DNA of 64,000 nt from Rhynchobatus australiae (taxonomy: Eukaryota): contig JAUZTB010000087.1 of NCBI GenBank assembly GCA_034780895.1, positions 44,753,795-44,817,794 on the forward strand, read 5' to 3'. The notes beneath the pieces are model-generated. The model was given only the letters and a program-made list of their open reading frames with translations. It did not search any database and was not told where the DNA came from. Positions 3,921-61,933 of this stretch are shown here, one piece after another; positions within the stretch are counted from its first letter, which is position 1, and every line of letters begins with the position of its first letter. A program made the translations under genes and the position numbers.

Positions 3921-4090
3921 AACAGTGAACGTTTTGGGTCGAGAACCTTCATCAGGACTGGAAAGGAAGAGGGCAGAAGCCAGTATAAGGAGGTCAGGTG
4001 GGGGAGTACATGCAGGAAGGTGATAAGGTGAGTCTGGGTGAGGGGGGAAGGGTTGGAGGGTGGGGGTGGAGGTGGGGGAGGGAGGATTCA
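3921..4090 (-). mobile_element. Penelope-like element terminal fragment with degenerate hammerhead core
   Basis: The - strand reads cagtc-CTGATGA-aggttctcgaccc-AAAA-cgtt-cactg. Same family as the copies at 21.5, 30.1, 55.1, 56.1 and 58.7 kb. Confidence 0.65.
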
Positions 4091-4094
4091 CTGA

Positions 4095-4312
4095 CCCATG
4101 ACTGGAGAAGGAGCACTGGATGGTATCAAGAACCTCGAGGCCCTGTGGCAGGAGCACAAAGGAGTCCTGCAAAATAATGGAACAGACTGCTGCACAGACT
4201 ACACGCCCATTCTGTCAGACACCACCATCCCACCTGTGCAAGCGTCTGTGCTTCACCAGCATGGGACTGGAGAGGAAGCAAGTGATCCTGAATCAGGGAC
4301 TATCTTAGGACA
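4095..4312 (+). mobile_element. RTE-clade LINE 3' end remnant
   Basis: The tail ggaagcaagtgatcctgaatcagggact resembles the RTE-like tails at about 28750-28785 and 63665-63720. Confidence 0.5.
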
Positions 4313-4369
4313 AAGCAACCACACCACCCACGTATCCCCCACCACCAACGAGGAGGAGGGCAAGTCCTG

Positions 4370-5080
4370 CGCGGTCACGTGAGCGATCCATGGGCGGGGC
4401 CACTGCTCGGAGGGCGGAGCCGTGCACGGGAAGGCGGGGTCATTTCAGGCGCGTCAGCACGTAAATTATGATTGAGACAGGTAGGTGCGTCAGGTGGGCG
4501 AGCGAAGGCGGAAGGACCTGCGGCTGTCGGCTGGGTGGGTCATGGGAGGGCGGAGGGGCGCGGCGGAGCGGGAATGAGTGCGCAGCTTCTCTCCATGTCC
4601 CGCGCAGCAGGCTTCCTCCGAGAAGTTGGCTGGCGCTTGAGGTTGGGCAGAAGCTGAGAAGGATTTCCTCGGTACTTCAGCGGCCAAACATGCTTCAGCA
4701 GGTCGACCATCTCTAGGGGAAGCGAGGAGCTGCCAGTCTGCTCGGTGAGAGGAGTTGTCCCCCCTGTCCGTGTGTCCGAGAGAGAAACTGTCAGTGAAGG
4801 TGGAGAGTTGGTGTGCCCTTGGGAAGAAAGCGAACGGTTGCCCAGCCTGACCGCGACAGAGCCAATTCCCAACCTGAGAACAGTCGTGTACCAACAATTA
4901 TGATAGCGAGATGTCGCTGTGCCTGAGGAAGGGTGTCCGGAAAGTTGAAGCAAAGCACAAGACACCACAGGCGAGGTTGTGGATTCAGCCACTGGAAAGC
5001 GTCGGTTGTGAGTGAACGCCAGCTCCGGGGAACTCAAGCATGCTGCCCGCAGCAGTGAAGAGATGGCTCCACAAGCCCAA
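4370..5080 (+). promoter_or_regulatory. CpG-island promoter and 5' leader of the ZFYVE28-like gene
   Basis: GC/CpG-rich stretch in an AT-rich background. GC boxes (GGGCGGGG 4392-4399, GGGCGGAG about 4412) and extended E-box GTCACGTGAG at 4374-4383. Ends at the first coding exon. Confidence 0.75.
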
Positions 5081-5081
5081 A
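5040..5081 (+). CDS. ZFYVE28: ZFYVE28-like coding exon 1 ([14 protein letters not shown])
   Basis: ATG at 5040. The peptide resembles human MMNRFRKWLYKPK. Donor AAA|gtaagg, phase 0, at the end of a CpG island. Confidence 0.88.
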
Positions 5082-14000: not shown

Positions 14001-17000
14001 TGACTCCATTTTAAAATGTTAGTGGATGATGTACACTGCTTTTGCATGAGCCAAGTCTGTGGAAAATAGAATAATACATGCTGGTCACAACAAGGAAATG
14101 ATGTTTAACCAATTGCTGCTGCTTTTGAAGTAATGTGCTATAGATAGAGGAACTGGTGGATGTATCATAAATAGCCACAGGCATTTGATAAAATACTGTA
14201 TCAAATGTAATTGTAGAAGCTAAAATCTCATGGTGGAGGTGTATTGGCATAGGTAGAAAATTAGCAGGTTAACATGAAACAGTCAACGTGGATTTTTAAC
14301 TGGGATCAGTGCTGGGACTTCAATATGTCATTGTTATAAATAACTTGGGTGAAGGTCTTGTTGCTTAATTTGCTGATAAGTCAATGTGGGTAGAAAAGTA
14401 GCTTGTGAAGAAGGTACAAGGATGTAACAAAGTAGGTTAAGTAAATGGGCAAAAAGTTTATAAGGTTTAATGTGGAGAAAATGAAATTATCATTTTTGGC
14501 AGGGAAGATTTGTACAAAAGGCTTCTTACCTAAATCGTGAAAGACTGCAGTGGTCTGATGTAGTGAGACCTGTGTTTTCTTGTCATGATTTGCAAAAGGC
14601 TTGTATGCAGGTACAATGAGTAATTAGAGCTAACAAAATGTCAATGCTTTTGCAAAAAGGAATTGAATGCAAAAGTAGGGAGGTTGTTTTTGTATACAGT
14701 GCAATGATGAGACAGCATCTGAGTTACAGTATTTAAGGAAGGATATTAGTTTTGGAAGCACTTTGGGGGGGGGGGGGGAAGAGTTTTCTCAACTAGTAAA
14801 GGATTAAAAATATACAATGTCCTGTGGTACAGGCAGGGTAGATGTGGAAGGATGTTTTTTCCAGTTGGAGAACCTAGAACTAGGTTTCACTGTTTAAAAT
14901 GAGATGAGAATTTTTTTTGAGGGTCATGTGTCTTCAGAATTCCCTTAAAGGTAGAAGAAGCATCCATCATTAAGGCCCTCAAATCCAAGACATGTCCTCT
15001 TCATTATACTACCAGCAGGGAAGAGGTCTAGGAACCTGAAGACCCACACTCGATGCTTCAGGAACAGTTTTTGACCTCCACCATCAGATTTCTGAATGGT
15101 CCATGAACTCTATCTTGTTGTTCCTCTTGTGCACTATTTATTTACTTTTGTAACTTCTTGTCTTGCACTGTACTACTGCTGCAAACTAACATGTTTCATG
15201 ACCTATTAGTCATGATAAACCTGATTCTGAAACAGTGTCTTTGACTACTTCTAAAGTGGAGATAAGAGGATGAAAATCTATTGGTGGGAACAGGGCATGT
15301 AAAGATGAGATTGTAATTAGGTCAGGCATGATTATGTTAAATGGTGGATCAGATTCAAGGGGCCAATTGGCCTACTTGCTCGCTTCTGTGCATGTTCACA
15401 TGCTCCTGATTTGCATGGTATACAGATCCAAGCATGCTTATTAGAGTGGATTAAGATTCTCACGCATTCCTTGGTTCATTTTTATGTTCTTAGTGAGGAT
15501 TAGCTGTTTAATGCAAGCCAGTAATACTTTCAATCTTTTCTGATACTATTGCAACCTTCTGACAGGTAACATTCCACTGCCATAAATTTAGAATGTTCAC
15601 ACAGGGTACTGACATTGCTGTAAGTTCAGTTGGCATATTAAGTAGCATCAGTGGATTGCTGCAGAATAATGTATTTGTGTTGCTGTAAACTAATGCTTTA
15701 AAAGCTCCTCCAAAGCTATATTAAATTGCTGTTTTGTTTAGTAATATTTGAAGGAATGAACTGAATGTGTATAGATAATTTCCCCCAAGTTGTGCCATTT
15801 ATTCTGAGTTCTTTGCTCTCATTACCCTTTCCTGCAGAAGGAATTGCTTGACCTCTTAATGGTTACTTGTCACATATTTAGCTTGTTATGAATCACAGCC
15901 AGCAGAGTTTAGGAGTATTTTCACATGGAGGGAAATGATGCCCCTGTCCTGCTCTCATAATTCTATTTTGTTTCCACAGAGATCTGACCCACACCCATTG
16001 GCTCAATTCTTCTATGCAGATAGGGAGGTGACTCGAGTGATGATAGAGCTGAATAATGTGAACCTTCACAATGACCCCCAAGAGTATGTGTTGCAACTGA
16101 ACAACCTCCGGGCCAGACAGGTCAGTGAGTTGGACTTGGGAAGACAATTTCATGTTGTAGACCTAATCTGAACTTTAAGATATTCTGAAGTTGGGATGTA
16201 CATATTTAATAGTAGCTTGTATTAATCAATTCTGGAGTGGATCAAGTGAGATTTTTGCCAAGCTGTCTTATGATGCAAAGTTGCAATGCAAAATTGAAAC
16301 GCTGCTTAGAGCTGTATTCTTGAAAATCATGATGGGTGCTTTTCTAACAAACATTGGCCTCTATGTAGGATCACATGGTTTTTGTGCTGAGGCAATGTCA
16401 ATACAAAAACAAATATTAAAAACAAAGAAAGATGATGAATCTTTCTCCCTGTGTTTTTTCTTTTCTCCCCACCCCCACCTTGCTTTTCTGGTTCCATGTC
16501 TGATACAACCAAGCTATTTAAAGCATTGACATATGCAGTGGCATCCAACTAGTCACAACCTCTTTATTTCACTCCCTGCTGATCTGCTCCCTATCTCCCA
16601 AAAGTCCAATTGATTCTTTCACCCAACTTGTGGTGGTCCAGCTGACCCTAAGGGACCTGATTATCCCTTGAATGAAGCAAAACCCATGGCTTTCCTCATT
16701 TCCACATTGGCAGAGTAAGATAAAGGTATTTGAGGGTCTAAAACCTTCTCTGCACACTACAGTGTGTCCGGTGCCTTCTCTAGGCTGCCTATGTCTCAAA
16801 TGGTGAGATAGGGAGACTCTGAGCTTTGTCTAGGATTTGACATTTTGATCTTCCTGGTCAAAGGCTGTGCTAACACACCTGAAGGGATGGTGAATTTATC
16901 ATTCTCAATCTCAAAATTTGAGAGAGGGGTAAGTGGTCCAGATTTTCCAGTCTTTATTGATGAGAAAAAGCTGTACAGCAGAGCCTTGTACAGATCTTAA

Positions 17001-23000: not shown

Positions 23001-26000
23001 TTTCAGGACCACATGCTGCAGATAATTAATCAGATCATGGATGAATGTATCCCCAATGAGCGACCAAATCGAGAGTTCCAAGTCAAGTTCCCTGATGAGG
23101 TTTTGCAGGAACAGCTAGGAGTACATCTCTGGTTTGCTGCTGAGGTAGGCCTTGAGGAGGAGGAGACACCATGCATCCTAAAGCCACAATTTGATCATCT
23201 AACCTGGCATTTATCTGACTTCCTGAGGGGATGATGTAACATTTGGCCATCTTCCATGTAACAAGTTTTTTTTTGGTGTCATCTGGGGCTTTTCACAATT
23301 ATCTATGTTTAAGTCTGTCTCATTTGGGAGAAATAGTTGGTTTGATCTGGTTATCTGCATTAAAGCTCTTTGGAACCTAAACTAACTTTAAAAACAATGG
23401 CTATGCACTATGCACCAATGTATGTGAATAAGGTGTGCCTGGCAATCTCTTTGCAATTGTCAATTAAATACTATCTGTGAAGTAGTGAATGGGGGGTGGG
23501 GTGGGGAAGGAGAAGAGAACAACTTTAAAAGCCTCTATTTTAAAATGTAGAGGCTTGTTGCTTTCAAGAAGGTGAAGTTTGGTGACGTGCTGCATGAAGC
23601 TCCTGAAAGCAATCCCAAAAAAAACCCCAGATAAATGGAGCAATATAATCCAGTTAATCTGACCTATAACATTCCAGAATTCACTAGAGCGTTTGTTCAG
23701 TAACTGCTAATATTATCATTACTCGAGTCTATATATTGCCTTCTACTTTAATGAGTTGACATTGGGAAGTGGAGGTTTGTATTGGTTTGTGAAAGGAGAA
23801 CAAAGAATTTGTGTACTTTAATCAACAGTGTTTGATGGCCGGCTCCCTCATTGAAGTGCATGAATCTGAGATGTTTCTGTTGCGCCCTCTGGCGGAGGAA
23901 CTACTGCACAGTCTGGAGGAGGTGCGATCACTTCTCCGGGAACAGTGTTGCTCTGATTACACTGTCTATACAGATGATATTAAAGCATCTCTTGTTCGGT
24001 TTGACGGGCTCTTTGCTGAGTTTGAATTCAGGTAAGAGGAGCAAAAATAAAGGATGCACACGCTCAGGGCTTCAAATATTTGGAAAATTGCAGTTTAGAT
24101 TTCAAGGAAATTCAGCTAAGACAGAGGATTCTGTGTGACCAAGTTAACAATGGTTTGTACTGGTATTTCTGTAGGATTTTATACACTTCAGAGGGGTGCT
24201 AGAGGTGACTTTGTAGTAATTGTTTTTCTTTCAAAACCGAATAGCAACAACTGTTACCCATTCTCCTTAATGGGAGAGAAGCTGATCAATAACCTGTTTC
24301 CCCTGCTTTGTTTAACATGTGACTCTTGTCAAGATCAGTTTAAAAGTTCTGTCCAAGGTAAAATGCTACATTACTGATGAAACACAGCAATTAGAATTTA
24401 CTCCTGGAACAACTAGCAAAATCAGTACAAATTGCACCCAAAAAATTTGACTAAATTGGATTTTTTTAGCCTATTTTCAGTTTGAGCTCACTAAATTACA
24501 AATGCTGAATGCAAAATCTACTCCAAGGTAATCTGAGTTTTTAAAAAAAAAGTTTATCTGAGTGGTAGTTAAGTGCCAATGTATTTAAAACAGCTGAAAA
24601 TTACTGTATTAGTCATAAGTAAGGGTCTTTGATCTAAGCCAATTGCAGTTGCTCAACTTTAAAAGACCAAAAATTAATTCCTATATTAGTAAAATGCTGT
24701 TTATATTCAAAAGTATTGAAAGCATTTTGATTTGAGTTGTTTCCAAAAGTGTTTTTATCTTGAGTTTCCTTCAAGTCCTTCAAATGAATATGGGCAGAAG
24801 AAATGCACAATGGTGATGGGGCAGTAGGAAGCTGCAAGGTGACCTGTTCTGTGGGTTTGTAGTGCAATGGTTTGCAAACTCAAAGATGGCAGAAATCAGT
24901 TTGGCTGACTTGCAAAACTTGTAATCTTTTGAAAATGTATTTGGGCAGTTTAGACCAATTAAAATTGACAGACCATAATGGGTAGACATTTCTAGCTCTT
25001 TGGAAAGGCAAAATCAACAAAGATTGAAAACTCAGATTTAATATCTGGACACTGATCTGACAGGCAAACAAGCTGACTGAGAACTGTTAGGCATTGTACA
25101 GCGTGAAATAGAAGCCTACATATTTTGTGAGGGATGGAGGAATCTTTTATTGTCATTAATTTAGAATTAATAGTCTAAAGGAAAATGAATTTGGGGAAAT
25201 AAGATCTTTAAACAATTTTTTTTGCTTTTTATCCGGAATCTTCAACATGACACTTGAGAAATTGGATGCAACAGTTGCTTTTCAGTTTGAATCGCATTAT
25301 TAATTCATTTTTAGTGGGCAAACTTTATTTTGAGAGCAGAAAAAACTGCACTGCATAACCGACCATCAGTTCAGTTAGCTTATTATGTTTTGCATTGATT
25401 TGTATGGCATGGTTTACATAGCAAACCTGTTGCACTGCAACCAACCNNNNNNNNNNNNNNNNNNNNNNNNNNNNNNNNNNNNNNNNNNNNNNNNNNNNNN
25501 NNNNNNNNNNNNNNNNNNNNNNNNNNNNNNNNNNNNNNNNNNNNNNNNNNNNNNNNNNNNNNNNNNNNNNNNNNNNNNNNNNNNNNNNNNNNNNNNNNNN
25601 NNNNNNNNNNNNNNNNNNNNNNNNNNNNNNNNNNNNNNNNNNNNNNNNNNNNNNNNNNNNNNNNNNNNNNNNNNNNNNNNNNNTTCTTTAAGTGCCTACA
25701 GTTGAAATACTTTGTCCAGACTGTCCTGCTTAGTGTCTAGATGAAACTGTTGTCCCATCACCATGCTATTGACCTCCTGAGAATGGTGTTTGAGTGTCAA
25801 AAAATGGCTTGCTTTTCCATTAAACTAATGCAGGAGGTACACTGAAATGTTGGACTTGAATTGACCATTCTATTCTGCTTCTTGATGAATACTTTGTTTT
25901 CCACTTGGCCACAGGTGTAATGAAGATCTTGCATTCAAGGAGGACTGGGGAAAATTGGATGGGATAAACCCTCGTCATAGAGATGCACAGAAACAATTCT

Positions 26001-29000
26001 TTAGGCCCACTGAGTTCACGCAGACCATCAACCACCCACTTGCACTAATCCTACATCAATCCTTTTCTTTCATTCTATCGACTTCACTTTGGATTCTACT
26101 ATTCACTTGCACTCTAAAGCAGTTTACAGCAGCCAGTTAACTGAGCAACCTACACATCTTTTGGGTTGTGTGAGGAAATGGGAGCACCCAGTGGGAACTA
26201 TGTTCACAAGAAGAACATAAACTCCACACAGACAGCTGAAGTCTGGATTGAACTGAGGCAGTGGCCATACATAGTGATATATGAAACGCTAAGGAGAAAA
26301 TGCCAGGTTCAACTGAAATATCCCAGGATATCAGAGGAAAGTAGCCATGGTCTGGGCAATTTTCCAATCCTCTGATGCTGTGTAGCAGTGTTGGAGTGCT
26401 AATGTATAGCATTTTATAAAATGCCAACTATAGGCTACTTGGGCTGACCTTGTGGCAGACAAGTAATTGTGCAGGGTGGGGAAGGGGGTAATTCTGAGGT
26501 CCAACATGACTCAAATCTAAGGGCTATGATTAAGAAGTATACAGATCCAAAAATTGCACACGTGGTTGATGAAAAGTTGCTGAAGAGGTGGAAAGACTGG
26601 GGAGCTGAACAGAAAAGTGGAACATGAACTTCAATCCAAAGAAATGGGAAGTAATGCACTTGAGAGCAAATGAGCCACTGGAACTTGATGACTGCTATGA
26701 CTAAAGTTCAAAACAATTATTTCATTAACTGAAATTCACCTAGGACAAGTCCTTCAGTACATCTGTTTTATTTTTGTTTTAACATGTGTTTTTTAACACT
26801 GAGTGAGGTGCTACCACAATCTTAACTATCTTATAAATATTTGTCCTGATTTTTGTGGTATTAAGTAAACAAATTTTGTAAATTTGTGTGATCTATATCA
26901 TTGAACAGTATTAAATTGGTCTTTTGATTTTTCACTTTATCAAAATGCATTTTGAAACCTAATCAACACAGTGAATGCTACAATATATTTTTAATAAAGT
27001 TGGAAAAAATTTGCTGGGCAAAATATTAACTTCAGAACTTCTTAGCAACTGATTTGCTGTTGGGCAGATGCTCATTCTTGTCTATTCTCAGATGGGTTCC
27101 ATTCTTTCACTTGAAGCTGGTGAGCTTCAAGTTTCCTGAAATATTATTTCTATTTCTTGGCATTAGTAAGACCTGATCCTGTGTAATTTGTATTGATCAC
27201 TTCATTAGATCAGCAACTCTGACCCAAATAATTATAGATGTAGACTACATTGCTTTTTGAGATAATTTGATGCTTACCGCATTGCCTTCCCCTATTACAG
27301 GGCACTGAAACTGGGTTACTTGACACAAGAGATGATTGATGGCTTGGAACCTGCACTGATGTTCACCATTCCCCGCCTTGCTATCATTTGGTAAGTCTGA
27401 CGCTAACACCGGAGCTGTGTAGTGTTTTCGTGGGGGGACTCTGGCCTGGTGGTAGTGGTCCATTTCTGTAAATGGAGACCGATCTGCAACCAGTGTTGCA
27501 TTCAACTAGCCAGTTGAACATCTGCTTGCTAGCTGACATCTGATTTTTGAGAAATAAAAATGTCCAGAGATGTAAGTGGTCAGTATTACTGATTGTGGTA
27601 TAATGTTACTTCAGCACACTACCCTGCCTCCCAAAATTCATTGCACATGTTAAATTTAATGCATTGATGGTGCTACAGTCATGTTTTGGCAGTACTGACC
27701 AGTCATAAATGTCTTCACGTTTTAAGCCATTTGCCACTTTGAAACCAAAGTGGTGCCAACTGCTCCAATCTGTTTAATGGCATCCAGAGCAATTTTTTTC
27801 TTTCCAGTGGGCTGATGATCTACCCAGAAGGACCTCTCAACCTAGAGCAGCAACCAGATAACATGTCCANNNTTTTTAAACCTTTCTACGCCCTCTTGCA
27901 AAAAATAAGGTAAGGATTGAGACATAGCACATAAAATGAGTACACTTGATTTGTTGCATGATGCACTAATGACACTTTGTCATGTTTCCCCACATGCCAA
28001 ATTTCATTAACATGAAAGTTCTCATGGTTAACACAAGTGGGCATAATTTTAAGGTGATTAGAGGAAGGTATGGGTGGGGGGAGATGTTAGAGAAGGTTTT
28101 TTTTTGCACAGTGGTGGGTGCATGGAATGCACTGCCAGCAGAGGTTGAGGGCAGATACATAAGGGGCACAACATAGTGGGCTGAAGGGCCTGTACTGTGC
28201 TGTAATGTTCTGTTCTTGGGCTGTATTGGAAGTGCACTACACAAAACTTGGCATCCGGGACCAATTAGAGAGGGAGAGCATGGTCGAGGGTTAGAGCCTG
28301 CAGTTGGGTCACCAAGCAAAATGAGTGGCTGCAGCCTGGTGGAGGAAGTATCTGTGAAGAGGGTTAGCGTCTAGGGATAAAGGTGTGTTAATCTCAAGGT
28401 GTTGAGGCCTGGAACTTGTAAAGGGGAGGGGTTGGCATCTTTCTGCAGTAGGGAGAGAATACTCAAAGGATCTCTACTGAGCAACAGAAGTGAGTTGACT
28501 ATTGGCACTTGGGAGCTTGTGGGAAGATGCTTGCTGCTCTGCTGTCATGCATCGCAGTATAGGAATGGTGGTCAATGTACTTGTAAGCCAAAGTGATCTT
28601 GCCCATTTCATGCCACCCCCCTTCAATCTTGTTAAACTTTCAATTGCTGATCAAGTGCTTGGACCACTTTGATCTCTTGTTGGTTCTAACTACAGTTGAG
28701 TCTCTGTAGACTCACTTTCCCCTGGGGATGGGGAATTGTGTACAGAACCAGACTGGAAGCAAGTCATCCTCAACCCAAAGTGAAGAGGCTGCCTTGTATT
28801 TCGTATAATGTTTACCACACAATCTAGCTTGAAATTTCCTAAATTTAGTTGCACCATTTCTTTGATTAAAGCTGCAGGGAAGCAATTCCACACATGGCTT
28901 ATGAATAACCTTATGTCATTTTACTTTGATTCCTTCTTCCTTTGTTATTCATTGTCTGTGAAGTGTATGAATTTGTGGTTGTCCAAAATGTACCAGTACA

Positions 29001-32000
29001 TACAAACTATTGTCTGATCTATTTTTCTCCTGACATGACCAATAGATGTTCAGATGTCTAAAATGGGTAAATATCTTGCAATATACAAGTCTTTTAACTG
29101 ACAAGGAGGTAGATGTAGTTGAGTTTGAACAGAAGAGACATTGGAAAAACAAGGAAATGCAAATTTAAGATAAAATGTGAGGTCTATTTTTATCTACCAA
29201 AAATAGACCATAAATTTGTAATATGCATTTGAAGTAAAAAAAATTGTTCCATTTGTAAGCTTTCATGATAAGAACAATTTTTCCTTACCATAGTTTTTCT
29301 ATATGCAGGTTCTAGCCCTTGGTGTGTAAAGGGGCTTAAATTGTGTTTCATGTATTGAGGCTTTGTGACAAATACACCAAGCTTGAGTGGATATAGTCCT
29401 GGACCTAGGAATGCCTGTCACAATGTTCCATCATGGACAGTCCCTGGCACTGAAACTAGAAAGTTTCAGGCAAACTAAAAGGGTTTGTTTTGTACCATGT
29501 CAATCACATACCAGCAGCAGGTGATATCTGCCTCCGTGCCATGTAAAGATCTTGTAGAGCACAGAGCCCTGTGTTGGGCAGCTACTCAGGATGAACAACT
29601 ACTAAGCTACNNNNNNNNNNGTATCCTTTTCCAGACCCTCCTGGCAAATCCACATTTGAGGAAATTTGGCTGTTAATTGTTAATGATGATTGATTAGTCT
29701 GCTTACTTGCTTTGCAACACTGACTTTGAACCCATCAGTTTAAATGTAGAAATCCTAACTTTAAGTGGAATGTCAATATTCTCTTTGGGAAACTTTTTTC
29801 TTTCTAATTTGGCTCTTGCTACTGAAAATAAGATTTTGTTGAAGATGTTAAAAGTATATTTAATAATCTATAGGTGATTGGGCTTCAATCATGGGACAGA
29901 TTATAAATGGGATCAGATTTATTATCACTGACTTGTATGATGTGAGATTTGTTTGCAGTTGGTCTTTGCAAAGACATAACATTACTAAATTTAAAAAAAA
30001 AGCAAAAAAATAACAAGGTGTTCATGTATCCATTTGGAAACCTGGCATAGGGGAAGAAACTGTTTCTGAAGCTAGAGAAACAAAGGACTACAGATGCTGG
30101 AACCTAGATGAAAAACGCTATGATGCTGGGTCAACTCACAGGCCAGGCAGCATCCGTGGAGAAAAGCAGGTGGTCAATATTTTGGGTCAGGACCCTTCAT
30201 CCTGAAGGGTCCTCGCCCATAACATTGACCGTGTGCTTTTCTCCACAGATTCTGCCTGGCCTGCTGAGTTGACCCAGCATCGCTGTTTCTGGATCATTGT
30301 TTGGGGCTTCAGGCTCTATCTCCTCCCTGATGGTAATAATGAGAAGGCATGTCCTAGATGGTGAGGGTCCTTGGTGATGAATGCTGCTTCCTTGAGGCAC
30401 TACCTTGATGGTGGGGAGGGTTGTGTTTTTCATAATTTCAAGTATTTGATCATGATTTACTGTAAAATGACCAACTTGGCTCAATATTCTACTTATTTTC
30501 TCAGGGACTTGCTTTATGTCCTCACAGAAGAAGAACTCTCTATGTTGGAGAAGAGCCTCTGTGCTGTAGAATCTGAGGATCTCTTCAATGGCCACACAAT
30601 GTTTCCCAATCTTTCATCTCCTCTTCACAACACCACATTGCCTCATGAAATGCTTGATGAACCTACACGTGCTGGTGGTGGTTCACCTATTCGGCATGAC
30701 AGAGAGGAACTCAAACACCAAGCACCTAATGAGCCATATTGCTTCCAGTCTACCTCAAATGCATCCAATTCAGTGGAGCAAACTTCAAATGAAATACAAC
30801 ATCTTTTGGAGGGTTCTACCTTTATACTTGACAGAGATGAAGTGTGGGGGCAAGAGTTTGGATGGATTGTGAATGTCAGCACACAGGAGGATGCACAGAA
30901 TCAAAACAAGATTATCTACACGGATAGTGCCAGGTCATCTTTATCTACTTTTAATGACAGCCTGACTGATTCCAATAGCATGCAGTGCTATTGTGTTGCA
31001 ATAAACCCTCATTCAGGAACTGACCATCCAGAATTCCTTGATGGGCTTGAAACAGCAGGAGTATCCACAATGACTACCATCCAAGCTCCTAATTCTCCAG
31101 ATAAATGCTATGTGCCAACAACTTCTGAACAAGATAATTTTTCTCATTTAAATACTGATTGTCCAGATGAGCGCACTGAAAATCACAAACCAGTGGCTGC
31201 TTCATTTCTTGGAGCAAATCCACAGCAGAACAGCTGTGGCAGAAGTGTCTCAAATGATCTGGTGCCTGAAGAGCTACACACCAATAACAGCAGGTGAGAA
31301 GGTTAGAGACTTGGGACATTGTTCTTGACAGCACTAATGCTGTTTGGAATGAGATGTGTACAGCTCAAAAATGTTTTTTTAGTTTGGGTCAACTTTCTTT
31401 TGATGTGAATAGTTGGATATAACTATAAAATTTTTGTTTCTTTGACTGAACACTCAGCCGCAGTAAAGGAACTTTAAGTTTTCAGTCACAATCTATTTTT
31501 TGTCTGGAATGTGTTTAGGAATTTATTTGGCAAAATGATTTGTTGTCCCCAACTAATGTTAAATGAATGTTCTGTGTTAGATGCTCCCATTTTAGAGGAA
31601 GAAATAAAGAAAGTAATATTTTCAGTTAACTTGGGTAAAGCATCCAGTCCTGACGGATTTACAGTTGAATTTTTAAAATCTTTTTCTGATATTCTTGTTC
31701 CCTGGTTAGCCAAAATTTGTACCAAACCCAAATAGCTGTTTCAGTAATAAAGTGCAAGCTAGACATTGATTCCAGATCTAATCAAGATGTTAACATTTTG
31801 TTTGCAATTGAATATTTCCTTTTAGAGATGGTGGTTGGAGAAAGGNNNNNNNNNNNNNNNNNNNNNNNNNNNNNNNNNNNNNNNNNNNNNNNNNNNNNNN
31901 NNNNNNNNNNNNNNNNNNNNNNNNNNNNNNNNNNNNNNNNNNNNNTTTCCTGAATTTTTGCAATCACTACTGCAAAGCAACAGGAGTGCCTCATGTTTTG

Positions 32001-35000
32001 GTCAGAAGTTCTTTTCATAATCCACCCATGTAACCCACAAGTAGTGTGATTGGTGAATCAGCCACATCTTCCTCCGAATGATCAAATAAAATCCAAATTT
32101 TCCAGCTTCATGGATGAGACTACTACTTATTACATTGAATAAGACCCACCTTGGTTCAATGGTTACTTTGTGATTGAGGCAGACATCAAATTCTGGTTAG
32201 TTAAGACCATTAAATTCTTTTTTGAAAATAAGATGTGACATTTACAAGGGATTGATCACCCATAATGCCACTGGAGAGAATAATACTGGTGATCCCTGCC
32301 CAGTGGGGTGGGGGTTGTGTTCCTACAAAATCCACGTTGCAATTTTCTGTAATGCAAAGCCACCTCATCTGTACACCAAGAAATACAAGTTGAAGCAAAT
32401 GTACTTTTTTGTTAATTTACTTTTTCCCACAAACTTCATGAGGGCAAATTTTATTTCATCTCAATTTTGGTTGGTGATTTGTGAATTCTATATGGGGCAA
32501 GTTGTCATAACTCTAACAGCTGTTTTTGTTGGAGTTGCTTGCACCAGATTTTACTTCATCCTTTAACAAAATGTGGAATAAATTCTACAAGACAATCTAA
32601 TGGTAGTCACTATATTCACCATGTGTACTTTGGCAGATTGTCTGAAGGAGAAAACGAGTTTCGTGTTATGGATTGGAAAATGGAAAGGCAAGCAGTGCAG
32701 GCTGTGAATGCCTTGGTAAGGGAGGAAATAAGATCACGGTACCGGAACAGTGGCGACATGCTTCATCGGCTCTTTGTTTGTATCTCTGGTATGTTGCTCA
32801 AGGCCTCGCTAGGTTTGGGACACTTGTAATGTTTTTTGCTTTGAGTGTGGCACTAGCAATAATGCTTGGTGCATAGTGTATCAAATGTCCGGGTTTTTTT
32901 TCATGCCCCTCTTTCTGCTGACCTCCTGAATGTGGCCATATTTCTGCGGACTGGGTGATAGGCCAACTTCCCCCAGGTTTTCTATGCACTTCCTGTTGAG
33001 GTTGACTGACAGGATCTAAATCCAATAGCCTTGTTGTGTGGTGAAGCTGGGGGACGAGGCTGTGCTTTCCTCATGCTAACAGTGCTGGGCTGGTAAGAGA
33101 AATAGGTTTCCATTCCCACCAAGATGAAAAGAATTCAATAAATCCAGTTACTCAGGGCTAACGCTAAGTAAGTCGGGGCCTGTCATCAAAACAAAGCTGT
33201 TGCATTCTAATTGTACATCCTCTGCCAGGTCTACTCTTTGACTCTGGATTTAATTACTCTTAATTCCCTCAGAGCAGTTGAGGATGAGTAATTAATACTT
33301 TTCTCCATGTGCTGAGAACATTTTGATCAATGCTAATATTTGATTTATTTTTAATTGCAATTGAGTCAAATACCTCAATCATTAGGTGAGGAAAATGTTT
33401 AGCGCACAGCATGAGAATCTGCAATAATATGCAGAGCTAATGCAATGTTTATTTTAAGCAAATATTGAGTAGATCCTGTGAATGTGTTCAGTAGAAAGCA
33501 CTAAGCAAAGGAAACTTGCCCTCCATTATTTGCTTTATTTTGATTAGCTGCCTTTTGAACATCCATGTAGATGCCATTTTAAACTAATAATTTTTGGCTT
33601 TTGACTATCAAAGTGACATAAAAATATTGATGGGAGCACCACAAGAAATGGTTAACCAGAGTTCTAAAACAATGAAATGGAAGGGGAGGTGCTTCAGGCA
33701 CTACAGTAACAATGTAAGGTAGAGGAGGAATATGAGGAAAATATTGCAACAGAAAGGTGGAATCTTTAGTCAAATAAGCATTGTTTTTACATAAGCATGT
33801 TGAGTAGAAGGAACAAATTGAATTTTGCGAATAACTTGAAGCTATATGTAACTACAAACTTGGGAGAAGGGGCAAATGCTTGCATGGGAAAAGTAGCAAT
33901 AGTGATGAAGTATGATCTGATGTCATGAGAGAAGCAAGTAGTGGGAATGTATTTTAGTGGTAATTGTGAGATGGTAGAATATAGAAATAAAAGGTTCACT
34001 AAAGTTGTGCCATTTTAAATGGAGTTTAACTTCCATGTAAATTGGATTAAGCAGACTTGCTCATGAAATGTAGTTGACTAGGGTGGACAAGATTTTTGGT
34101 TTTGCAGCAATATGCCATTAAAATACAAGTAGAAACTATTATTGGTTTGGTATTTTAAGAAAAATTATTTCAGAATCGGTGTGTAAATGTTTATCCAATA
34201 TAATTGAACTTGGTGTGGTGTTGGAGAGGAGGCTTTACTTCTGGTTATTGCTCATGTAATGAAATGCTGCTTGCATATCTGTTTAAATCATAATTGAAAA
34301 GTTGGAGTTCAAAGAAACTTTTACTGTGTGATGTTTTTTAACTCCCAAGTACTAGAGCTGCAAGTGTAAAACATGCATGGATGACTTGAAGTAAAGGGCA
34401 ACAAATCTAAGAAAATGCTTAGGGCAAAAAACAAATACTAATTTTGTTGACTGGGAGGGAGTGGTGAAAAGTAATGATGGGTTATAAGCACCATAATACT
34501 CAGGATATTAAAATAAACACATTCCTCCTGCCCATCTTTTTTCCTTAACATGGGCAAAGTTGACTTGTCAGAAGTGTTTAGTGGTGATATTTGTATACTT
34601 AAAAACAATAAATTGGCAGATGTGCTGAATAATAACTTTGCATCAGTATTTGTGGTGGTGAAGAACATACCAAGAAAACAAATTGTAAAAGGCAGGGACT
34701 TGCAAAAATTTAAAAGGGAATTGCAGATCAATTAACTTTGAGGAATAAAGCAGAAAATGTTAAAGATCTGGCAAAGCCACATTCAGAATTGAGAAAGGTT
34801 GGAACAGCTTTAGAGATGAAGATTTGCAATAAAATGGAAAGAACAGATTAAATGATAGAAAGATTATGTGCTTGATTTGAATAGATACTTGGATATTAGG
34901 TTTCACCATTTTGTTGAATGCAAAAACATGTCTTCCACATAAAGCTAATATCCAATTTGGGTCCCTGTAAAATAAAAATCTCTCAATTAGCCAATTTGTA

Positions 35001-38000
35001 TCATAAATGGTGAGTGCACTGCAGCAGGATCTGTGGTTCCTGAATGGTCAGCAATGAAGGTTTCCCAATTGCCATGCACAGCTATGACAGTCACTGGGCA
35101 TCAGACCTTAAATGAGTGCCCTCCTTGGGAGCCACAGACTGACTGCAAAAAAGGCTGCTGTGTAGTGAGGGGAAATGAGGGAGCAGTGAGCACCCACCCT
35201 CAGTTTATTGCTGACAGTAGCTATATAACATTGCAAAGTTCAGGATGATCAGTGAGGCAATTAGCACACATTCCTCCTGATTCATGATTAATCAGGATTA
35301 TCTGATTTAATCAGGATTAAATGATGATTAGCTCTGACCTGCATTGTATAACAATGCTATAGTTAGTGATGATGCCAGCAGTGAAGTATCATGAGGACCA
35401 AGGCCAGCAGATACATGTAAGACATTGGTATCAGAATAAATTCTTTAATTGCAACTTTCAGTGTTATATGTGCAACAGACATCTAGAGAATATCAGACAT
35501 GTTAAAGTGAATTGAACTCTGAAGGGCCCTGTTACTTTCCCATGACTTCAAGTGCAAATGACAGAAGGCAAGATCTAACCAAAGTTACTGTCTTTGTGCA
35601 TGCAGTTTCTAGGATCAATGTTGCTTGAGTTAATTTTTCACTTGATTAGTGAGATCAAGCATGGATCTGTAATGTTAAGTCAATCCTCACTGCTACTTGT
35701 TTCTGTGGGTAATTTGTTGGATGGGAATGTCAACTGATATTACTTGTGTAGAATCCAGAAGGCCTCCAATAAAATCCCTCAAGACATTGTTAAAGTTAGA
35801 AATGAACTTGAAGGCAATTTGAAGGAGACAATGTAGAGATATTTGCTCAAAATGGTAGGTTGTGTCCAGTATTTCAATTGAAGTTGTGATCACTTGCCAT
35901 ATTTATGACATTGGAACAGAAATGCCCATAAAACTTCATCAGTTTTTTAAAAACCAAGTTGAACGATATTATAAACATGGATGGCAACAAGAGTAAAGAT
36001 ACAATAGGAAGAGTAAATGGACAAAATTGTGTCAAATCGATTTCTACGTAGGCCTATGTGCAGCACCCAATTTACACCTTAAAAAGTAAAAGGAATGGGA
36101 AGGAGAGGTGGTCTAGGACTAGAACTCTAGGGTGTTACATTCACATTAGAGTTGGTAGTTAAGATCCTGAAAGACAAACTAAAAAAACAACTGAAGGACC
36201 CTTTTGTTATCAATGTAGACATAAAAGTATTGGTTTGGCTCTGTTCTCTTGTCATTCACTTATCAGTTATCATTCTGTGGAACAGGTGTAGCGGATCAAC
36301 TACAGACCAACTTTGCAGGAGACCTTCGGCGGATTCTAAAGACTGTCTTTGAGATTGCAACATCAACACCAGAAAAGAATGAGGATGTTATGGAAGAGGA
36401 AGAAGGTATACTAGATTCAATTAGCCCCTTGTGTGGTCTACAACTTCACACAGATTGGAGCCTCTTATAGGATGATTGAGAAGGCTAAGTGCAAACCACA
36501 TGCACTTCACAGCTTAAATCCCAGAGCTTTGAGATACCACTGAGCCCAGGCTGCACATTATTTGAAATGCATTCAATATTTGTATCAAACCTAGTGTTGT
36601 AGGAGAGTGAAAACTTCAAATGTGCCCCACCTGCTAGCTAGAGACAAAATGGGGATGCCCGAAGTGGCCACAAAGATCAAGTCCTAGGCTATCTCCATTA
36701 TCCATTTGTGTAGGAGAAATGCAGTGAGGAAATAATTGAAATGGATATAAAAACCAGAGTAGATTTATAGGGGAAGCAATCACAGAAACCGTTGCCCAGG
36801 TTGCAGAACTTTGCATTAAATCCTACAATACTTTGTACAGTAATTAAAATACAAATATAGAAAGCCTTTGAATAATGCAATTGTGATTTGTTTGCAGAGG
36901 AGGAGAATGTGAATGCAGAGCCCCCCTTGGAAGATTGTGCACTGTGTCAGGAATCCCATTCATCTAGAACTTCCAATTTAAATAGCAGCAAACCAGAAGG
37001 TACAGTAATAGCCATTTTACAAGGTAAACCTACCCCTGGCCTCATAACCATTTGCCATTTAATGGTGGTGATATTGTTTTTGATATTCATATTTTGATTA
37101 CTGGGTGAAACTGAAATTTGGGAATGTATTTGTTACCTTGCTGAAATTGATTGTTCACAATACCTGGGCAATGTGTGGGAGATACTAACATGTTAAGACC
37201 TTATTGACATTATACATGTTCAATCATTCACTGATGTATTTCATGGTGAATGCTACCATTTAACAATGCAGTTTGCACAAATGTTTCTTGGTCTCAAATT
37301 CATTTTTTTCCTTAAGTCAGGTAAAGTGGTTCATTGGAGATTCCTGGAAATTGTTTTTCTCTCCAATACAGTGCCTCCAGAGTGGATTGCTGACTCTGCC
37401 TGCAACCAATGCATGTCTTGTAAAGCACCATTTACAATTATCAGGAGACGGCATCATTGCAGGAATTGTGGCAAGGTACACTATTTGACTTGTAGAATTA
37501 GAATCGTGTATCAGGCTTTGGATACAGGAAAGAGTAACAAATAGTTGTGTTTTGGATTTTAACTTCAGCTAAAGTTCCACAGCATAAAAAGTAGATGTGC
37601 AATTTCAGCCTCAGCACATCCCCCAAAATGTATTGAGCTTGAATCATTTTGCCAACAGCTGGTGGTTTTAAGGGGATGGCTGGCTCACAGCCGATCTATG
37701 TACAATATGTCTTGGGCTGTGTGATGCTGAAACATGGAATGTCCTGAAGGTCAGATGCAACTGAATCTGATCTCCTCGCTCCTCTGCCACACCATGGCTT
37801 ATAAATGATCACTTTCGTTTCATGAGTTAGCAAACTCCTGTGGGTGAAAAGCAAGTATTTGAACTATTTTACTGTAATGTTCTCAATTACTTGTATTTTC
37901 ATTTTTAAAATGTTAATTATGTAAATCTACTTGAATAGTTTTTTAAAAAAAATCTTGGACATTCAAAAGCCTTTTTGATAGCTGGTGATTTGTCAGAAGT

Positions 38001-39404
38001 GATCTGGGACAAGCCTTCTGCTACTTGCTCCTTGTGGGATTCATCTCCTGGATCTGGGAGGGCAGCCTGTTCTGCTCTCCATATTCAGGGCTAGAATAGT
38101 AGCTCCAGGCAGGTAAGATGAATCAGTGGCAAATCTCAAATGAGCAACCTGTAACTGCTTGCAAACTAGATTTGAAATGTGATTACGGAATGATTTAGTC
38201 TATTTGCATAAAACACTGTGACCTCAACCTATACCCCTCTCAACCTTTTTAGACTCGTAGTTGGACAGCTCAAAGAAGTCCTTCTGCTACCAAGTCCATG
38301 CCAATCGCACTAATCCTGCACAAATCCTATTCTCCCCATGATGACTTAACTGTCCCCACCCACAACCCACCTACAGACTAAGGACAATTTAGTGCCCAAA
38401 TCTTTGAATATGGGAAGAAACCATTGGAGGAAATCTGTGGTCACATGAAAAATGTGCAAACTCCAAGTGGATGGCACCAGAGGTCAGGTTTGAACCCAAG
38501 TTACTGGAGCTGTGAGAAAGTAGCTNNNNNNNNNAGCTTGATTAGCTGTGCAACTGTGCTTCTCAACCTCCTTTTGCTCCAAGATTCCCCAGTATATCCT
38601 TGCAGCTGACCTCTGGAACCATTCTGGTAAACCTGAATGGACAGGCCAGATGCACTTTATGTCACCCTTCAGCTTTATGGTAGCCACAGCTGGCATATCT
38701 AGCAAAGATTCATTTTAATGGGATTGCTGATCTTCATAAGCTATGTGAAGCCAAGTGGCTTGTTGCCCCTTCCCCTCTACTTCAAACATTCTTAATTTGC
38801 ATCTTAAATGTGTTTTTTAAAATGTATTGCTGGTTCTACAACTCAAGAACTTGTATTTATTTTGGATGTTTCTAAATAGAGGTGGTTCCACCACCTGAGG
38901 CCTGGTTGCTGTTTGCAGCCTGATCCATTTCACAGTTGCAACATCTGCAGGACATTGGAGACTGAAGGCACAAAAATGGCTCTAGGGCTTATGGTGTGGG
39001 ACATTCCACATGTGATATGGCCCATCTATATTTCTCAAATTTGATTCCCTTGTCACTGCCCTCTGCAAGGTCTTGCATTTGTAGCCAAGAGCCATGTAAT
39101 GAATGATGTGACTCAAACCAATACAAGTTACCTCTAAAGTGATATTTCTTATTCCTGAATTAGTTTTACTTTGTGCATTGAGACATTTTGGAAAGGAAAG
39201 TGTCCTCTTCCCTTGTTTATCATGCTTTACTATCAGGAAAAGCTCAACCGCCACTATTTGGTTTTGTTTCAGATCTTCTGCTCCCGCTGTTCCTCCCAAT
39301 CAGCTCCATTACCTTGGTATGGACAGATGAAGCCAGTCCGTGTCTGTTCACACTGTTACATGTGTCACCTCACTTCCTACTATTCCAGCACATCTGCATG
39401 CTAG
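5040..39404 (+). CDS. ZFYVE28: Lateral signaling target protein 2 (LST2)/ZFYVE28-like FYVE-finger protein, spliced: join(5040..5081,15980..16120,23007..23144,23829..24031,[exon 5 not seen],27301..27390,27808..27909,30505..31293,32637..32788,36286..36405,36898..36999,37372..37475,39273..39404)
   Basis: All visible exons are flanked by GT/AG and are phase-compatible. They total 2115 nt (704 aa plus stop). The translation is colinear with the LST2 family as I recall it: N-terminal helical domain, low-complexity middle, [17 protein letters not shown] block and C-terminal FYVE. Probably a paralog (ZFYVE28-like). Confidence 0.93.
6819..7102 (-). mobile_element. V-SINE, same family as 3610-3919
   Basis: Reverse complement of head, V-domain and ...gtacatgtgactaataaa tail. 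Confidence 0.85.
10430..11970 (+). mobile_element. Decayed CR1 LINE (RT region to 3' tail), followed by an inverted CR1 tail at about 11765-11970
   Basis: [13 protein letters not shown] and other CR1 RT remnants, plus the typical gatcttgttgaatggc tail. Confidence 0.7.
13120..13500 (+). mobile_element. Rex1/Babar-type LINE fragment
   Basis: Remnants [15 protein letters not shown] and [25 protein letters not shown]. Confidence 0.8.
14200..15380 (+). mobile_element. Decayed CR1 LINE with a Rex-Babar 3' tail inserted (about 14960-15230)
   Basis: CR1-like ggatcagtgctggga and tttgctgat...tttaatgtggagaaa segments. The Rex tail gaagacccacact...cttgcactgtactactgctgcaaa is repeated at 47080-47350, 49270-49540 (-) and about 58430-58590. 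Confidence 0.65.
15980..16120 (+). CDS. ZFYVE28: ZFYVE28-like exon 2 ([14 protein letters not shown]...LNNLRARQ)
   Basis: Acceptor ttttgtttccacag, donor CAG|gtcagt, 141 nt. Matches LST2 RSDPQLLARFYYAD. Confidence 0.93.
18300..18930 (-). mobile_element. Decayed RTE-clade LINE fragment (region between endonuclease and RT)
   Basis: Remnants KAEGQQK..., [21 protein letters not shown] and TKNGGEVI resemble RTE ORF segments. Confidence 0.55.
21462..21880 (+). mobile_element. V-SINE interrupted by a Penelope-like fragment (21491-21620)
   Basis: SINE head gggcagcacagtagtgtagcggtcagc, then the gcagatgctggaatctggagc...tcatcagg insert, then the SINE resumes with B box, V-domain and tail. Confidence 0.8.
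22959..23012 (+). repeat. Perfect 27-bp tandem duplication spanning a splice acceptor
   Basis: taattttcattttaatttcaggaccac occurs twice in tandem (22959-22985, 22986-23012). Confidence 0.97.
23007..23144 (+). CDS. ZFYVE28: ZFYVE28-like exon 3 ([16 protein letters not shown]...HLWFAAE)
   Basis: 138 nt, [11 protein letters not shown] and VKFPDE motifs, donor GAG|gtaggc. Uses the second of two duplicated acceptors. Confidence 0.93.
23829..24031 (+). CDS. ZFYVE28: ZFYVE28-like exon 4 (CLMAGSLIE...[10 protein letters not shown])
   Basis: Acceptor caacag, donor AG|gtaaga, 203 nt. Matches LST2 CLAAGS...RPLAKEL...FAEFEL. Confidence 0.93.
27301..27390 (+). CDS. ZFYVE28: ZFYVE28-like exon 6 ([29 protein letters not shown])
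   Basis: Acceptor cctattacag, donor TG|gtaagt, 90 nt. Near-identical to the LST2 [25 protein letters not shown] block. Not in the ORF track. Confidence 0.93.
27808..27909 (+). CDS. ZFYVE28: ZFYVE28-like exon 7 ([33 protein letters not shown])
   Basis: Acceptor ttttctttccag, donor AG|gtaagg, 102 nt. The frame is kept across 3 Ns. Confidence 0.92.
30122..30281. repeat. Fold-back (inverted) Penelope-like copy, arms about 78 bp with a 3-nt loop, nested in a Rex-Babar tail (about 29910-30420)
   Basis: 30122-30199 (gatgctgggtcaactca...ggacccttca) is the imperfect reverse complement of 30203-30281 (tgaagggtcc...tgagttgacccagcatc). Confidence 0.88.
30505..31293 (+). CDS. ZFYVE28: ZFYVE28-like exon 8, large low-complexity exon ([19 protein letters not shown]...HTNNSR)
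   Basis: Inside ORF 30371..31297. Acceptor ttttctcag, donor AG|gtgaga, 789 nt. The start matches LST2 DLLQTLTEEELHTLERNLC. Confidence 0.9.
31530..31730 (+). mobile_element. L1/Tx1-type LINE ORF2 fragment
   Basis: [16 protein letters not shown]...[24 protein letters not shown] matches the L1 pre-RT (KSPGPDGF..EF.K) region. Confidence 0.8.
32637..32788 (+). CDS. ZFYVE28: ZFYVE28-like exon 9 (...[23 protein letters not shown])
   Basis: Acceptor ctttggcag is phase-compatible with exon 8. HRLFVCIS motif. Donor G|gtatgt. Confidence 0.88.
36286..36405 (+). CDS. ZFYVE28: ZFYVE28-like exon 10 ([23 protein letters not shown]...)
   Basis: Acceptor aacag, donor G|gtatac, 120 nt. Conserved GVADQLQTN motif. 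Confidence 0.92.
36898..36999 (+). CDS. ZFYVE28: ZFYVE28-like exon 11 (...[12 protein letters not shown]...KPE)
   Basis: Acceptor ttgtttgcag, donor G|gtacag, 102 nt. LEDCALCQE motif as in LST2. Confidence 0.9.
37372..37475 (+). CDS. ZFYVE28: ZFYVE28-like exon 12, FYVE N-half ([34 protein letters not shown])
   Basis: WxxD and RRHHCR FYVE signatures, 104 nt, AG/GT flanks. Confidence 0.95.
39273..39404 (+). CDS. ZFYVE28: ZFYVE28-like exon 13, FYVE C-half and stop ([29 protein letters not shown]...SAC*)
   Basis: Acceptor gttttgtttcag, CxxC pairs and RVC motif, TAG at 39402-39404. Confidence 0.95.
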
Positions 39405-41854: not shown

Positions 41855-41975
41855 AATAAACATCTTGCCTAACAAGACTGCTTTGTATGGGTGCTGCATT
41901 TTGTAACTTTCATGATTCCATCTTTTTGAAATTCCACATCTTTCAAATAAAGCAAAGGTGGCCACTTGGTGTCTT
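41855..41975 (+). terminator. Probable polyadenylation region of the ZFYVE28-like gene
   Basis: AATAAA at 41855-41860 and 41946-41951. The second is followed by GT/T-rich ggtgtctttttc. About 2.5 kb of AT-rich, repeat-poor UTR-like sequence lies between the stop and these signals. Confidence 0.45.
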
Positions 41976-44825: not shown

Positions 44826-44831
44826 TTTATT
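44826..44831 (-). terminator. Candidate PRELID1 polyadenylation signal
   Basis: AATAAA on the - strand about 1.4 kb past the stop. Another candidate lies at about 45482-45487. Confidence 0.4.
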
Positions 44832-46252: not shown

Positions 46253-46392
46253 TTAGACATATTGCTTTTTCTTCTGCGGTCCTGCTTTGCTGGCTAGATC
46301 CTTTGCCTTCTCTGTAGCTGCCAAAGCTGTTTCCTTAGCCTTCTCGGTTGCTTCTTTAGCAGTCTCCCTCAATGTCTTCATTGGTGTTTCAC
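46253..46392 (-). CDS. PRELID1: PRELID1 last coding exon (GETPMKTLRETAKEATEKAK...KQYV*)
   Basis: Acceptor ttttccccct-tcag, LEA-like KE-rich tail, TAA at 46255-46253. Confidence 0.95.
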
Positions 46393-60965: not shown

Positions 60966-61139
60966 GTTTACTAGTGTAATTTTCTAAGTACAGTAATACA
61001 ATAAAGGTATCACAATGCATGTGGTCCGCGTTGTGCTATGGTATATTGCGGCACCGAGGACTGCACTACAGACTCGTTGCGGATAACAACACAGGTGGAT
61101 GCCACCAAGGCCGCTGGAAATGTTGCCTCCTCCATGTAC

Positions 61140-61720: not shown

Positions 61721-61933
61721 CCGTCCTTGCCCACTGATCATGGCACTCACTCAGTCCTTACAGTCCAGTGAGGAATCAGCGGATGGGAACCCTGGCTCAT
61801 TAGATGCTCTGCAACACCTAATGCACTAAAGTAATACCACCTGGGATGGGATCAGCTAATTCAGCAATCAGCTGGAAAGTCTTCAGTGTTGGATCGTCAC
61901 TGACGATGCATACAGCAGTGGGAGTTACAGAGT

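Follow-up and report, generated by a model that had tools for sequence, protein, structure and literature searches.

LST2, the product of the human ZFYVE28 gene, restrains signaling by EGFR and the insulin receptor in a manner that is poorly understood, and it is the described protein with which the gene reported here has to be compared. This LST2-like gene lies on the + strand of a 64,000-nucleotide (nt) stretch of contig JAUZTB010000087.1 of Rhynchobatus australiae (positions 44,753,795 to 44,817,794), hereafter the window, meaning the whole stretch that was analyzed. According to PMC11348030, RAPTOR binds LST2 only through residues 401-405, and mTORC1 phosphorylates S670, which favors mono-ubiquitination of K87 as well as the stability and reticular location of the protein; the F401A, S670A, and K87R forms are endosomal and unstable, and loss of LST2 raises EGFR, FGFR, and IGF1R and lowers VEGFR2 and the insulin receptor. 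How phosphorylation and ubiquitin switch the FYVE finger of LST2 is left open in that paper, and an FYVE-dependent endosomal action on the insulin receptor is described in PMC10603069.

A duplicate of ZFYVE28 has been in print since 2011, when PMC3177325 linked Mxd4 to ZFYVE28 and Mxd3 to Prelid1 and to an unannotated ZFYVE28-like “unnamed duplicate”. This “ZFYVE28*” is almost certainly the same gene as ours; it serves there as a synteny marker, with no tree, range, motif, or functional analysis in the text consulted, and has MXD3 beside it, which is undetected in the window. In the little skate, “Zfyve28-2” (PMC10115646) occupies the same position beside Prelid1, with promoter bins about 50 kb apart against 51.3 kb between start codons here; the main text of that paper does not mention ZFYVE. 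RefSeq labels such proteins automatically as “lateral signaling target protein 2 homolog”, for example, XP_051870825.1, which is 93% identical to the window protein. Finally, the LST2 proteins of amphioxus (XP_066277015.1), Aplysia, and C. elegans (lst-2, PMC11348030) have the LST2 domain plan and, like the paralog and as PMC11348030 states for invertebrate LST2, no TOR signaling (TOS) site; they fall outside the vertebrate duplication, and their sequences resemble ZFYVE28 more than that of the paralog does. We found no dedicated study of the paralog in the literature searched, which leaves aside subscription papers and supplements that may list it; the main text of PMC3296468, on mammalian gene losses, does not mention FYVE or LST2, and its supplements may list the gene. 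What is in print is the existence of the duplicate, in passing (2011), plus automatic annotations; its range, its beta origin, its probable loss in placentals, and its lack of a TOS site do not appear to have been described.

We confirm that the LST2-family gene in the window is real, far beyond chance, because its protein is 93% identical (650/699) to a sawfish RefSeq protein (P0001).

Gene Model and Domain Content

The gene runs from an ATG at 5040 to a stop codon at 39402-39404, in repeat-rich vertebrate DNA. Its 12 mapped coding exons are joined in phase, with GT at 11/11 donors and AG at 11/11 acceptors, and encode, with a 90-nt placeholder standing for exon 5, 734 amino acids (aa) with 0 internal stops. 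A preliminary description of the window had claimed an open LST2-family gene of 704-734 aa; the frame bears this out, and the range in length is explained by the presence or absence of exon 5. The CpG observed/expected ratio is 0.66 in the bin 4001-6000, which holds the start of the gene, against about 0.1 elsewhere. The features of the gene are as follows:

4300..4700, + strand: CpG-rich stretch, putative promoter of the LST2-like gene (CpG observed/expected ratio)
5040..5081, + strand: exon 1, coding part, ATG, 14 aa (mapped frame; outside the read-covered stretch)
15980..16120, + strand: exon 2, bearing the paralog-type N-domain motif (mapped frame; outside the read-covered stretch)
23007..23144, + strand: exon 3; codon 23085-23087 is K88, equivalent of the human ubiquitin site K87 (frame and spliced contig of a relative)
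23829..24031, + strand: exon 4 (frame and spliced contig of a relative)
25447..25683, no strand: 237-N assembly gap, probable site of the 90-nt exon 5
27301..27390, + strand: exon 6 (frame and spliced contig of a relative)
27808..27909, + strand: exon 7, with 3 N at 27870-27872 and the frame kept (frame and spliced contig of a relative)
30505..31293, + strand: exon 8, end of the N-domain and variable linker, without a ZFYVE28-type TOS site; ray-restricted F-I-L-D-R at 30821-30835 (frame and spliced contig of a relative)
32637..32788, + strand: exon 9, start of the conserved C-terminal block (frame and spliced contig of a relative)
36286..36405, + strand: exon 10, conserved C-terminal block (frame; 5' joint not among the contig joints displayed)
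36898..36999, + strand: exon 11 (frame and spliced contig of a relative)
37372..37475, + strand: exon 12, first half of the FYVE finger with WxxD and RRHHCR (Pfam, frame, and spliced contig of a relative)
39273..39404, + strand: exon 13, second half of the FYVE finger with RVC, and stop codon (frame and spliced contig of a relative)

None of the runs recorded as RNA contains this DNA, which says nothing about expression. Four of the five sequencing runs listed were compared with positions 22800-39600 of the window, a stretch outside of which exons 1 and 2 lie. In one relative (two runs of one study, putative RNA), single contigs span exons and omit introns, and their joints match the mapped ends for exons 3/4, 6/7, 7/8, 8/9, 11/12, and 12/13; the 10/11 joint stands in a contig with 20 differing letters, and the 9/10 joint is absent among the joints displayed. 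In a spliced contig of this relative, exons 4 and 7 are separated by 180 nt, which equals the length of exon 6 plus 90 nt; exon 5 is thus included in its transcript. In R. australiae, exon 5 probably lies in the 237-N gap of intron 4, where, among the pieces shown, the DNA contigs of one sequencing run end at 25433 and restart at 26027. At the other end of the gene, the sawfish and several shark models begin about 9 residues earlier; the window frame at 5016-5039 reads differently, and this extension does not seem to be kept here.

The intact FYVE finger and the divergent N-domain of the preliminary description both stood up to comparison. Exon 12 alone matches the Pfam FYVE model (PF01363, E-value 6.6e-13), and the alignment has WxxD, RRHHCR, and RVC in place, with the four CxxC zinc pairs (eight Cys) kept. 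In the N-domain, the paralog-type motif of exon 2 replaces the ELDSLDGRKDPQ of ZFYVE28 proteins and of human LST2 in PDB 9f43. The N-terminal LST2 domain covers about 290 aa, over which the sawfish ortholog scores 362 bits against residues 6-294 of human LST2; the phmmer E-value of this ortholog against human LST2 is 7.8e-177. With regional protein identity as the measure of conservation, the conserved parts are 96-100% identical to the sawfish ortholog and the linker 87%; against a second, ZFYVE28-type sawfish protein (P0024), the window protein is 48% identical (328/690), with 61% in the N-domain (154/253), 69% in the FYVE finger, 70% in the C-terminal block (33/47), and 27% in the linker. 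Since N-domain, C-terminal block, FYVE finger, and K87 equivalent are all present, the window protein can be assigned, at the level of its sequence, to the LST2 family. Matches in the atlas searches were LST2 clusters plus one fungal cluster at 0.90, which is a lead.

Human LST2 (887 aa; PDB 9f43 and 9f45) shares these four elements with the window gene. It differs in its longer linker, its TOS site and IAHRTGG block, its intact SMQYD block, its RRKHHC where the window has RRRHHC, its MXD4 neighbor in place of PRELID1/NSD1, and an about 6-fold slower rate.

Phylogeny and Evolutionary Rate

Relatives were gathered with exon 4 and then with sawfish P0001 (1536 matches, 120 listed), and class profiles sorted the 120 matches listed into 42 of the paralog type and 78 of the ZFYVE28 type. 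Lungfish, newt, axolotl, frogs, alligator, and hagfish, as well as amphioxus, acorn worm, and starfish, were added from the best 150 matches listed when a profile was run against representatives at 50% identity. As a first full-length tree gave long-branch warnings, it was rebuilt on conserved columns: the final tree rests on 397 columns, drawn from three conserved blocks, and holds 41 of the 50 proteins aligned, the nine proteins left out being Aplysia, one unnamed invertebrate, five paralogs, and two ZFYVE28.

The preliminary description had proposed such a tree as a check, and the window protein falls outside the ZFYVE28 clade (14 rows, supports 97/97), in a separate paralog clade (22 rows, 100/100), where it sits among rays and nearest to sawfish. 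A vertebrate clade (100/99) encloses both clades and leaves out amphioxus, acorn worm, and starfish. On this tree, barring gross model error, identity of the window gene as ZFYVE28 is refuted, and the gene belongs to a second LST2 clade that spans sharks, rays, basal ray-finned fish, lungfish, amphibians, reptiles, birds, and marsupials. Both types occur together in Pristis, Hemitrygon, Hypanus, Mustelus, Scyliorhinus, Carcharodon, Amia, and Anas, and the two copies are on contigs of different length (120.5 and 104.4 Mb in Pristis).

The paralogs have evolved much faster: their median root-to-tip distance is 0.85, against 0.13 for ZFYVE28 (about 6 to 6.6-fold), a stem of 0.35 precedes the radiation of their clade, and their identity to amphioxus is 48-57%, against 70-72% for ZFYVE28.

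Linker Blocks, K87, and the TOS Site

Human residue numbering was taken from PDB 9f43, in which the TOS site is F401-F-M-D-D405. Motifs were counted in 178 full-length proteins of the paralog and 74 of ZFYVE28, numbers that take in isoforms as well as near-identical species (birds). The TOS profile matched 0/178 paralogs and 71/74 ZFYVE28 proteins, the IAHRTGG block likewise 0/178 and 71/74, and the SMQYD block 3/178 (shark remnants) and 71/74; one has to keep in mind that these profiles were built from ZFYVE28 sequences, so the ZFYVE28 matches arise by construction. The K87-equivalent lysine, K88 in the window protein, is present in all 175 parsed paralogs (3 were unparsed). Around S670, even human and platypus ZFYVE28 align poorly, and the region is too variable for comparison with the paralog.

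The linker has 269 aa in the window protein (paralog clade median 113), against 495 in human LST2. Most likely, the SMQYD and IAHRTGG blocks were lost by the paralog, because hagfish LST2 has both and sharks retain an SMQYD remnant. Hagfish LST2 gives no TOS profile match; the paralog may have lost the TOS site, or ZFYVE28 may have gained it after the split.

Among paralogs, the linker varies extremely in length: the salamander proteins (P0173, P0174, and P0312, from newt and axolotl) reach 1300-1600 aa in total, those of lizards, birds, and marsupials about 500-600 aa; in P0173, Pfam matched FYVE alone. A divergent ZFYVE28-type protein of Esox lucius (P0205) keeps SMQYD without a TOS or IAHRTGG profile match and is possibly a teleost-specific duplicate that independently lost the same motifs.

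Synteny and Ohnolog Origin

The preliminary description had placed the gene tail-to-tail with PRELID1 and read it as a paralog retained from the second round of whole-genome duplication (2R), in a paralogon of the FGFR3/FGFR4 type. The first point is borne out by a − strand exon that matches human PRELID1 (6i3v, E-value 3.4e-33), and two more rows describe this side of the window:

46253..56357, − strand: PRELID1, tail-to-tail with the LST2-like gene; coding exons at about 56357-56266, 54804-54579, and 46392-46253 (homology)
39405..46252, no strand: interval between the two stop codons, in which no MXD3 was detected

The PRELID1 stop codon, at about 46253, is 6.85 kb from that of the LST2-like gene, and the start codons are 51.3 kb apart. 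The neighbor of the window gene is PRELID1, with no MXD-type basic helix-loop-helix (bHLH) in the window, and skate Mxd4 lies with the other copy. Indeed, PMC10115646 places Mxd4 (22.47), Zfyve28-1 (22.63), Add1 (23.11), and Rgs12 (23.65 Mb) on little skate chromosome 3, and Nsd1 (25.78), Prelid1 (25.95), and Zfyve28-2 (26.00 Mb) on chromosome 11. In Table 3 of the same paper, skate chromosome 11 (chicken 13) is the 2-beta member of linkage groups I/Q, and chromosomes 1 and “3?” are 2-alpha. Beta segments lose more genes and evolve faster (PMC10115646), with which the faster rate of the paralog fits; PMC7269912 reports the same alpha/beta asymmetry of loss and dates the alpha-beta event after the lamprey split.

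The tree, the two genes per species, and the skate chromosome map support the claim of a retained 2R paralog, and the paralogon argument holds, with a likely beta origin, on the skate Mxd4 and Prelid1/Nsd1 loci. We thus consider it very probable that the window gene is a 2R (jawed-vertebrate) ohnolog of ZFYVE28, likely from the beta subgenome.

MXD3 itself was not found: the best tblastn E-value between the two genes was 1.3, and the best profile E-value was 0.82 over 3778 six-frame pieces of the window, while a control profile from the same two proteins matched 8 LST2-like exons (E-values 2e-5 to 3e-22). Mxd3 overlaps Prelid1 in all vertebrates sampled in PMC3177325, and no Mxd3 row is found among the rows available of the skate supplement (PMC10115646); MXD3 may have been lost or moved in rays. 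In bonytongues, models of Scleropages formosus (P0045) and a bonytongue-like entry (P0171) fuse the paralog, up to just before FYVE, with the MXD3 bHLH-zipper, which replaces the FYVE finger, so the paralog adjoins MXD3 there; the fusions are either read-through transcripts or a repeated annotation artefact.

Distribution and Loss

Residues 1-130 of the gecko protein, used as a query, matched 121 proteins, and the 120 of these that were listed are all of the paralog type. These at least 120 paralog matches are mostly from lizards, snakes, turtles, crocodilians, and birds, with Xenopus tropicalis, four ray proteins, two unnamed rows, and five marsupial clusters that contain opossums, koala, wombat, Tasmanian devil, antechinus, tammar, and monito del monte. 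No placental or monotreme was among the 120 matches listed, in a search that needs shared 5-residue words and missed ray-finned-fish paralogs; the placental absence is therefore suggestive, not proof. Teleost paralogs have been seen in eels, tarpon, bonefish, bonytongues, and mormyrids.

We know of a single LST2 gene in humans. A loss in the human lineage had been proposed; since marsupials keep the paralog, the loss looks placental-wide rather than confined to that lineage, and the paralog was likely lost in placental mammals.

Proposed Function and Alternative Explanations

On balance, though with reserve, we favor the following reading: the window holds a second LST2-family ray gene, a beta ohnolog that kept FYVE and K87, has no TOS site, and would act as an endosomal receptor sorter outside mTORC1 control. 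By analogy with human LST2, the FYVE finger would bind phosphatidylinositol 3-phosphate (PI3P) on early endosomes, and mono-ubiquitination at the K87 equivalent would switch location and stability. Without RAPTOR docking, the paralog would resemble the endosome-localised LST2-F401A and would route activated receptor tyrosine kinases to late endosomes or degradation, its level being set by transcription rather than by nutrients. We are fairly confident that the paralog would bind PI3P on endosomes; our judgment is evenly divided on whether it would sort receptors independently of mTORC1.

The skate data give a hint of expression. In Supplementary Table 5 of PMC10115646 (anterior vs posterior pectoral fin), Zfyve28-2 has a base mean of 3627, a log2 value of +4.22, and an adjusted p of 5e-69, while Zfyve28-1 has a base mean of 747 and a log2 value of +1.51. 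Positive values read as posterior, because Alx4, Pax9, and Hoxa2, which are anterior in the text, are negative. The skate paralog is expressed and its pattern is a lead, the table having 6,887 rows in which Hand2 is negative, despite being posterior in the fin. A wider picture, tentative and, in our opinion, rather doubtful, would be that jawed vertebrates have carried, for about 450 million years, an mTORC1-gated ZFYVE28 plus a TOS-less endosomal twin that sets receptor levels in a spatial pattern (about 19-fold biased to the posterior of the skate pectoral fin) and that was lost in placentals; if true, loss of the twin leaves the LST2 receptor sorting of placentals wholly under mTORC1 feedback.

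Several points, to which the construction of the linker profiles belongs, weigh against the favored reading and bring alternatives with them. The partners of the N-domain may differ from those of ZFYVE28, because it is just 61% identical to that of sawfish ZFYVE28. The same paralog could have taken a new job, its fast N-domain having changed partners, with other endosomal cargo or a tissue-restricted role; we hold this to be unlikely. The about 6.6-fold longer root-to-tip distance with its stem of 0.35, the 48-57% identity to amphioxus (70-72% for ZFYVE28), the three linker blocks lost or eroded, and the regional expression in the skate fin (log2 fold change 4.22 vs 1.51) would agree with a new role, but the whole clade has kept K87, the FYVE pocket, and the C-terminal block, and invertebrate LST2 also has no TOS site (PMC11348030).

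A second point comes from the linker itself, where the window protein has F-I-L-D-R (aa 375-379), shared with Pristis, Hemitrygon, and Hypanus. This fits the first four TOS positions (F-x-hydrophobic-D), and mTORC1 docking is therefore possible for the ray copy, all the more as the human site also deviates from the consensus at position five. That the ray copy is still an mTORC1 substrate through this motif, regulated much like ZFYVE28, is nonetheless improbable: the motif is missing in skates (FILNR), the electric ray, and all sharks examined, MAFFT leaves it unaligned with the ZFYVE28 site, F-x-hydrophobic-D/E of any kind occurs in 7/168 parsed paralog linkers (bichir and lungfish have other loose matches), and a basic fifth residue would be a poor fit to the positively charged RAPTOR pocket.

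The 2R origin has its own weak points. No lamprey sequence was identified, the single hagfish sequence groups weakly with ZFYVE28 (56/2), and hagfish outside both clades has a p-value of 0.574 in the approximately unbiased test (p-AU), with a log-likelihood 0.29 higher; with so weak a placement, the tree alone cannot separate the first round of duplication (1R) from 2R. Skate chromosome 3 bears its alpha label with a question mark in the table, and skate Zfyve28-2 was joined to the paralog clade by position, not by sequence comparison. The pair could instead stem from 1R or from an old segmental duplication of the MXD-LST2-PRELID1 block, with which the hagfish grouping, its two shared linker blocks, and the tentative label would agree; we find this quite improbable, as hagfish outside both clades fits equally well, skate chromosome 11 is listed as 2-beta and as chicken 13 (PMC10115646), the rate asymmetry is beta-like, and block 1 was present in the common ancestor, given the remnant of it in shark paralogs.

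As for the local copy, exon 5 was not found in the sequenced part of intron 4 (best E-value 0.15). Exon 3 has a further peculiarity at 22959-23012, a perfect 27-bp tandem duplication of its acceptor, which is a polymorphism or an assembly artefact; the upstream copy, if used, leads to a stop after two codons. The copy might then be damaged, by deletion of exon 5 or mis-splicing of exon 3, and give a shortened protein or none, but this is highly improbable: the right intron has a large enough gap, skipping 90 nt keeps the frame, isoforms without exon 5 are annotated in relatives (P0002, P0003, and P0005), the other exons are open, and the domains are 96-100% conserved.

Lastly, ZFYVE28 in R. 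australiae itself is something that we infer from sawfish and skates, and RefSeq gives the window-type proteins a name shared with ZFYVE28 products. That the gene is a divergent ZFYVE28 ortholog of the ray, or a duplicate of cartilaginous fish only, nevertheless appears extremely improbable. The sawfish genome separately encodes a typical ZFYVE28 (P0024), orthologs of the paralog reach marsupials, and a duplication confined to cartilaginous fish was rejected, since forcing both sets together costs 137.5 log-likelihood units (p-AU 4e-45).

If the favored reading of a TOS-less endosomal ohnolog holds, a copy that kept K87 and FYVE while shedding most of its linker shows the core parts of LST2 and offers a comparison with ZFYVE28. 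In datasets of chicken, Xenopus, axolotl, opossum, and shark, the two genes go by a single name, which means that LST2 orthology and knock-outs in these animals can be misread. To this a probable placental-specific gene loss is added, with its weight limited by the facts that unnamed ohnologs lost in placentals are common and that the existence of the duplicate was known.

Other Features of the Window

Among the open reading frames (ORFs) listed, no middle coding exon of PRELID1 was recognised (46393-54578, − strand), a stretch with N gaps at 49697, 50833, and 52030. Upstream of PRELID1, a GC- and CpG-rich stretch at 61000-61800 on the + strand, in which no coding exon was identified, could be the promoter of either PRELID1 or the gene that follows, which we take from human gene order to be RAB24. 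Two similar stretches of the ORF list, at 61900-62250 and 63100-63550, are probably a local repeat.

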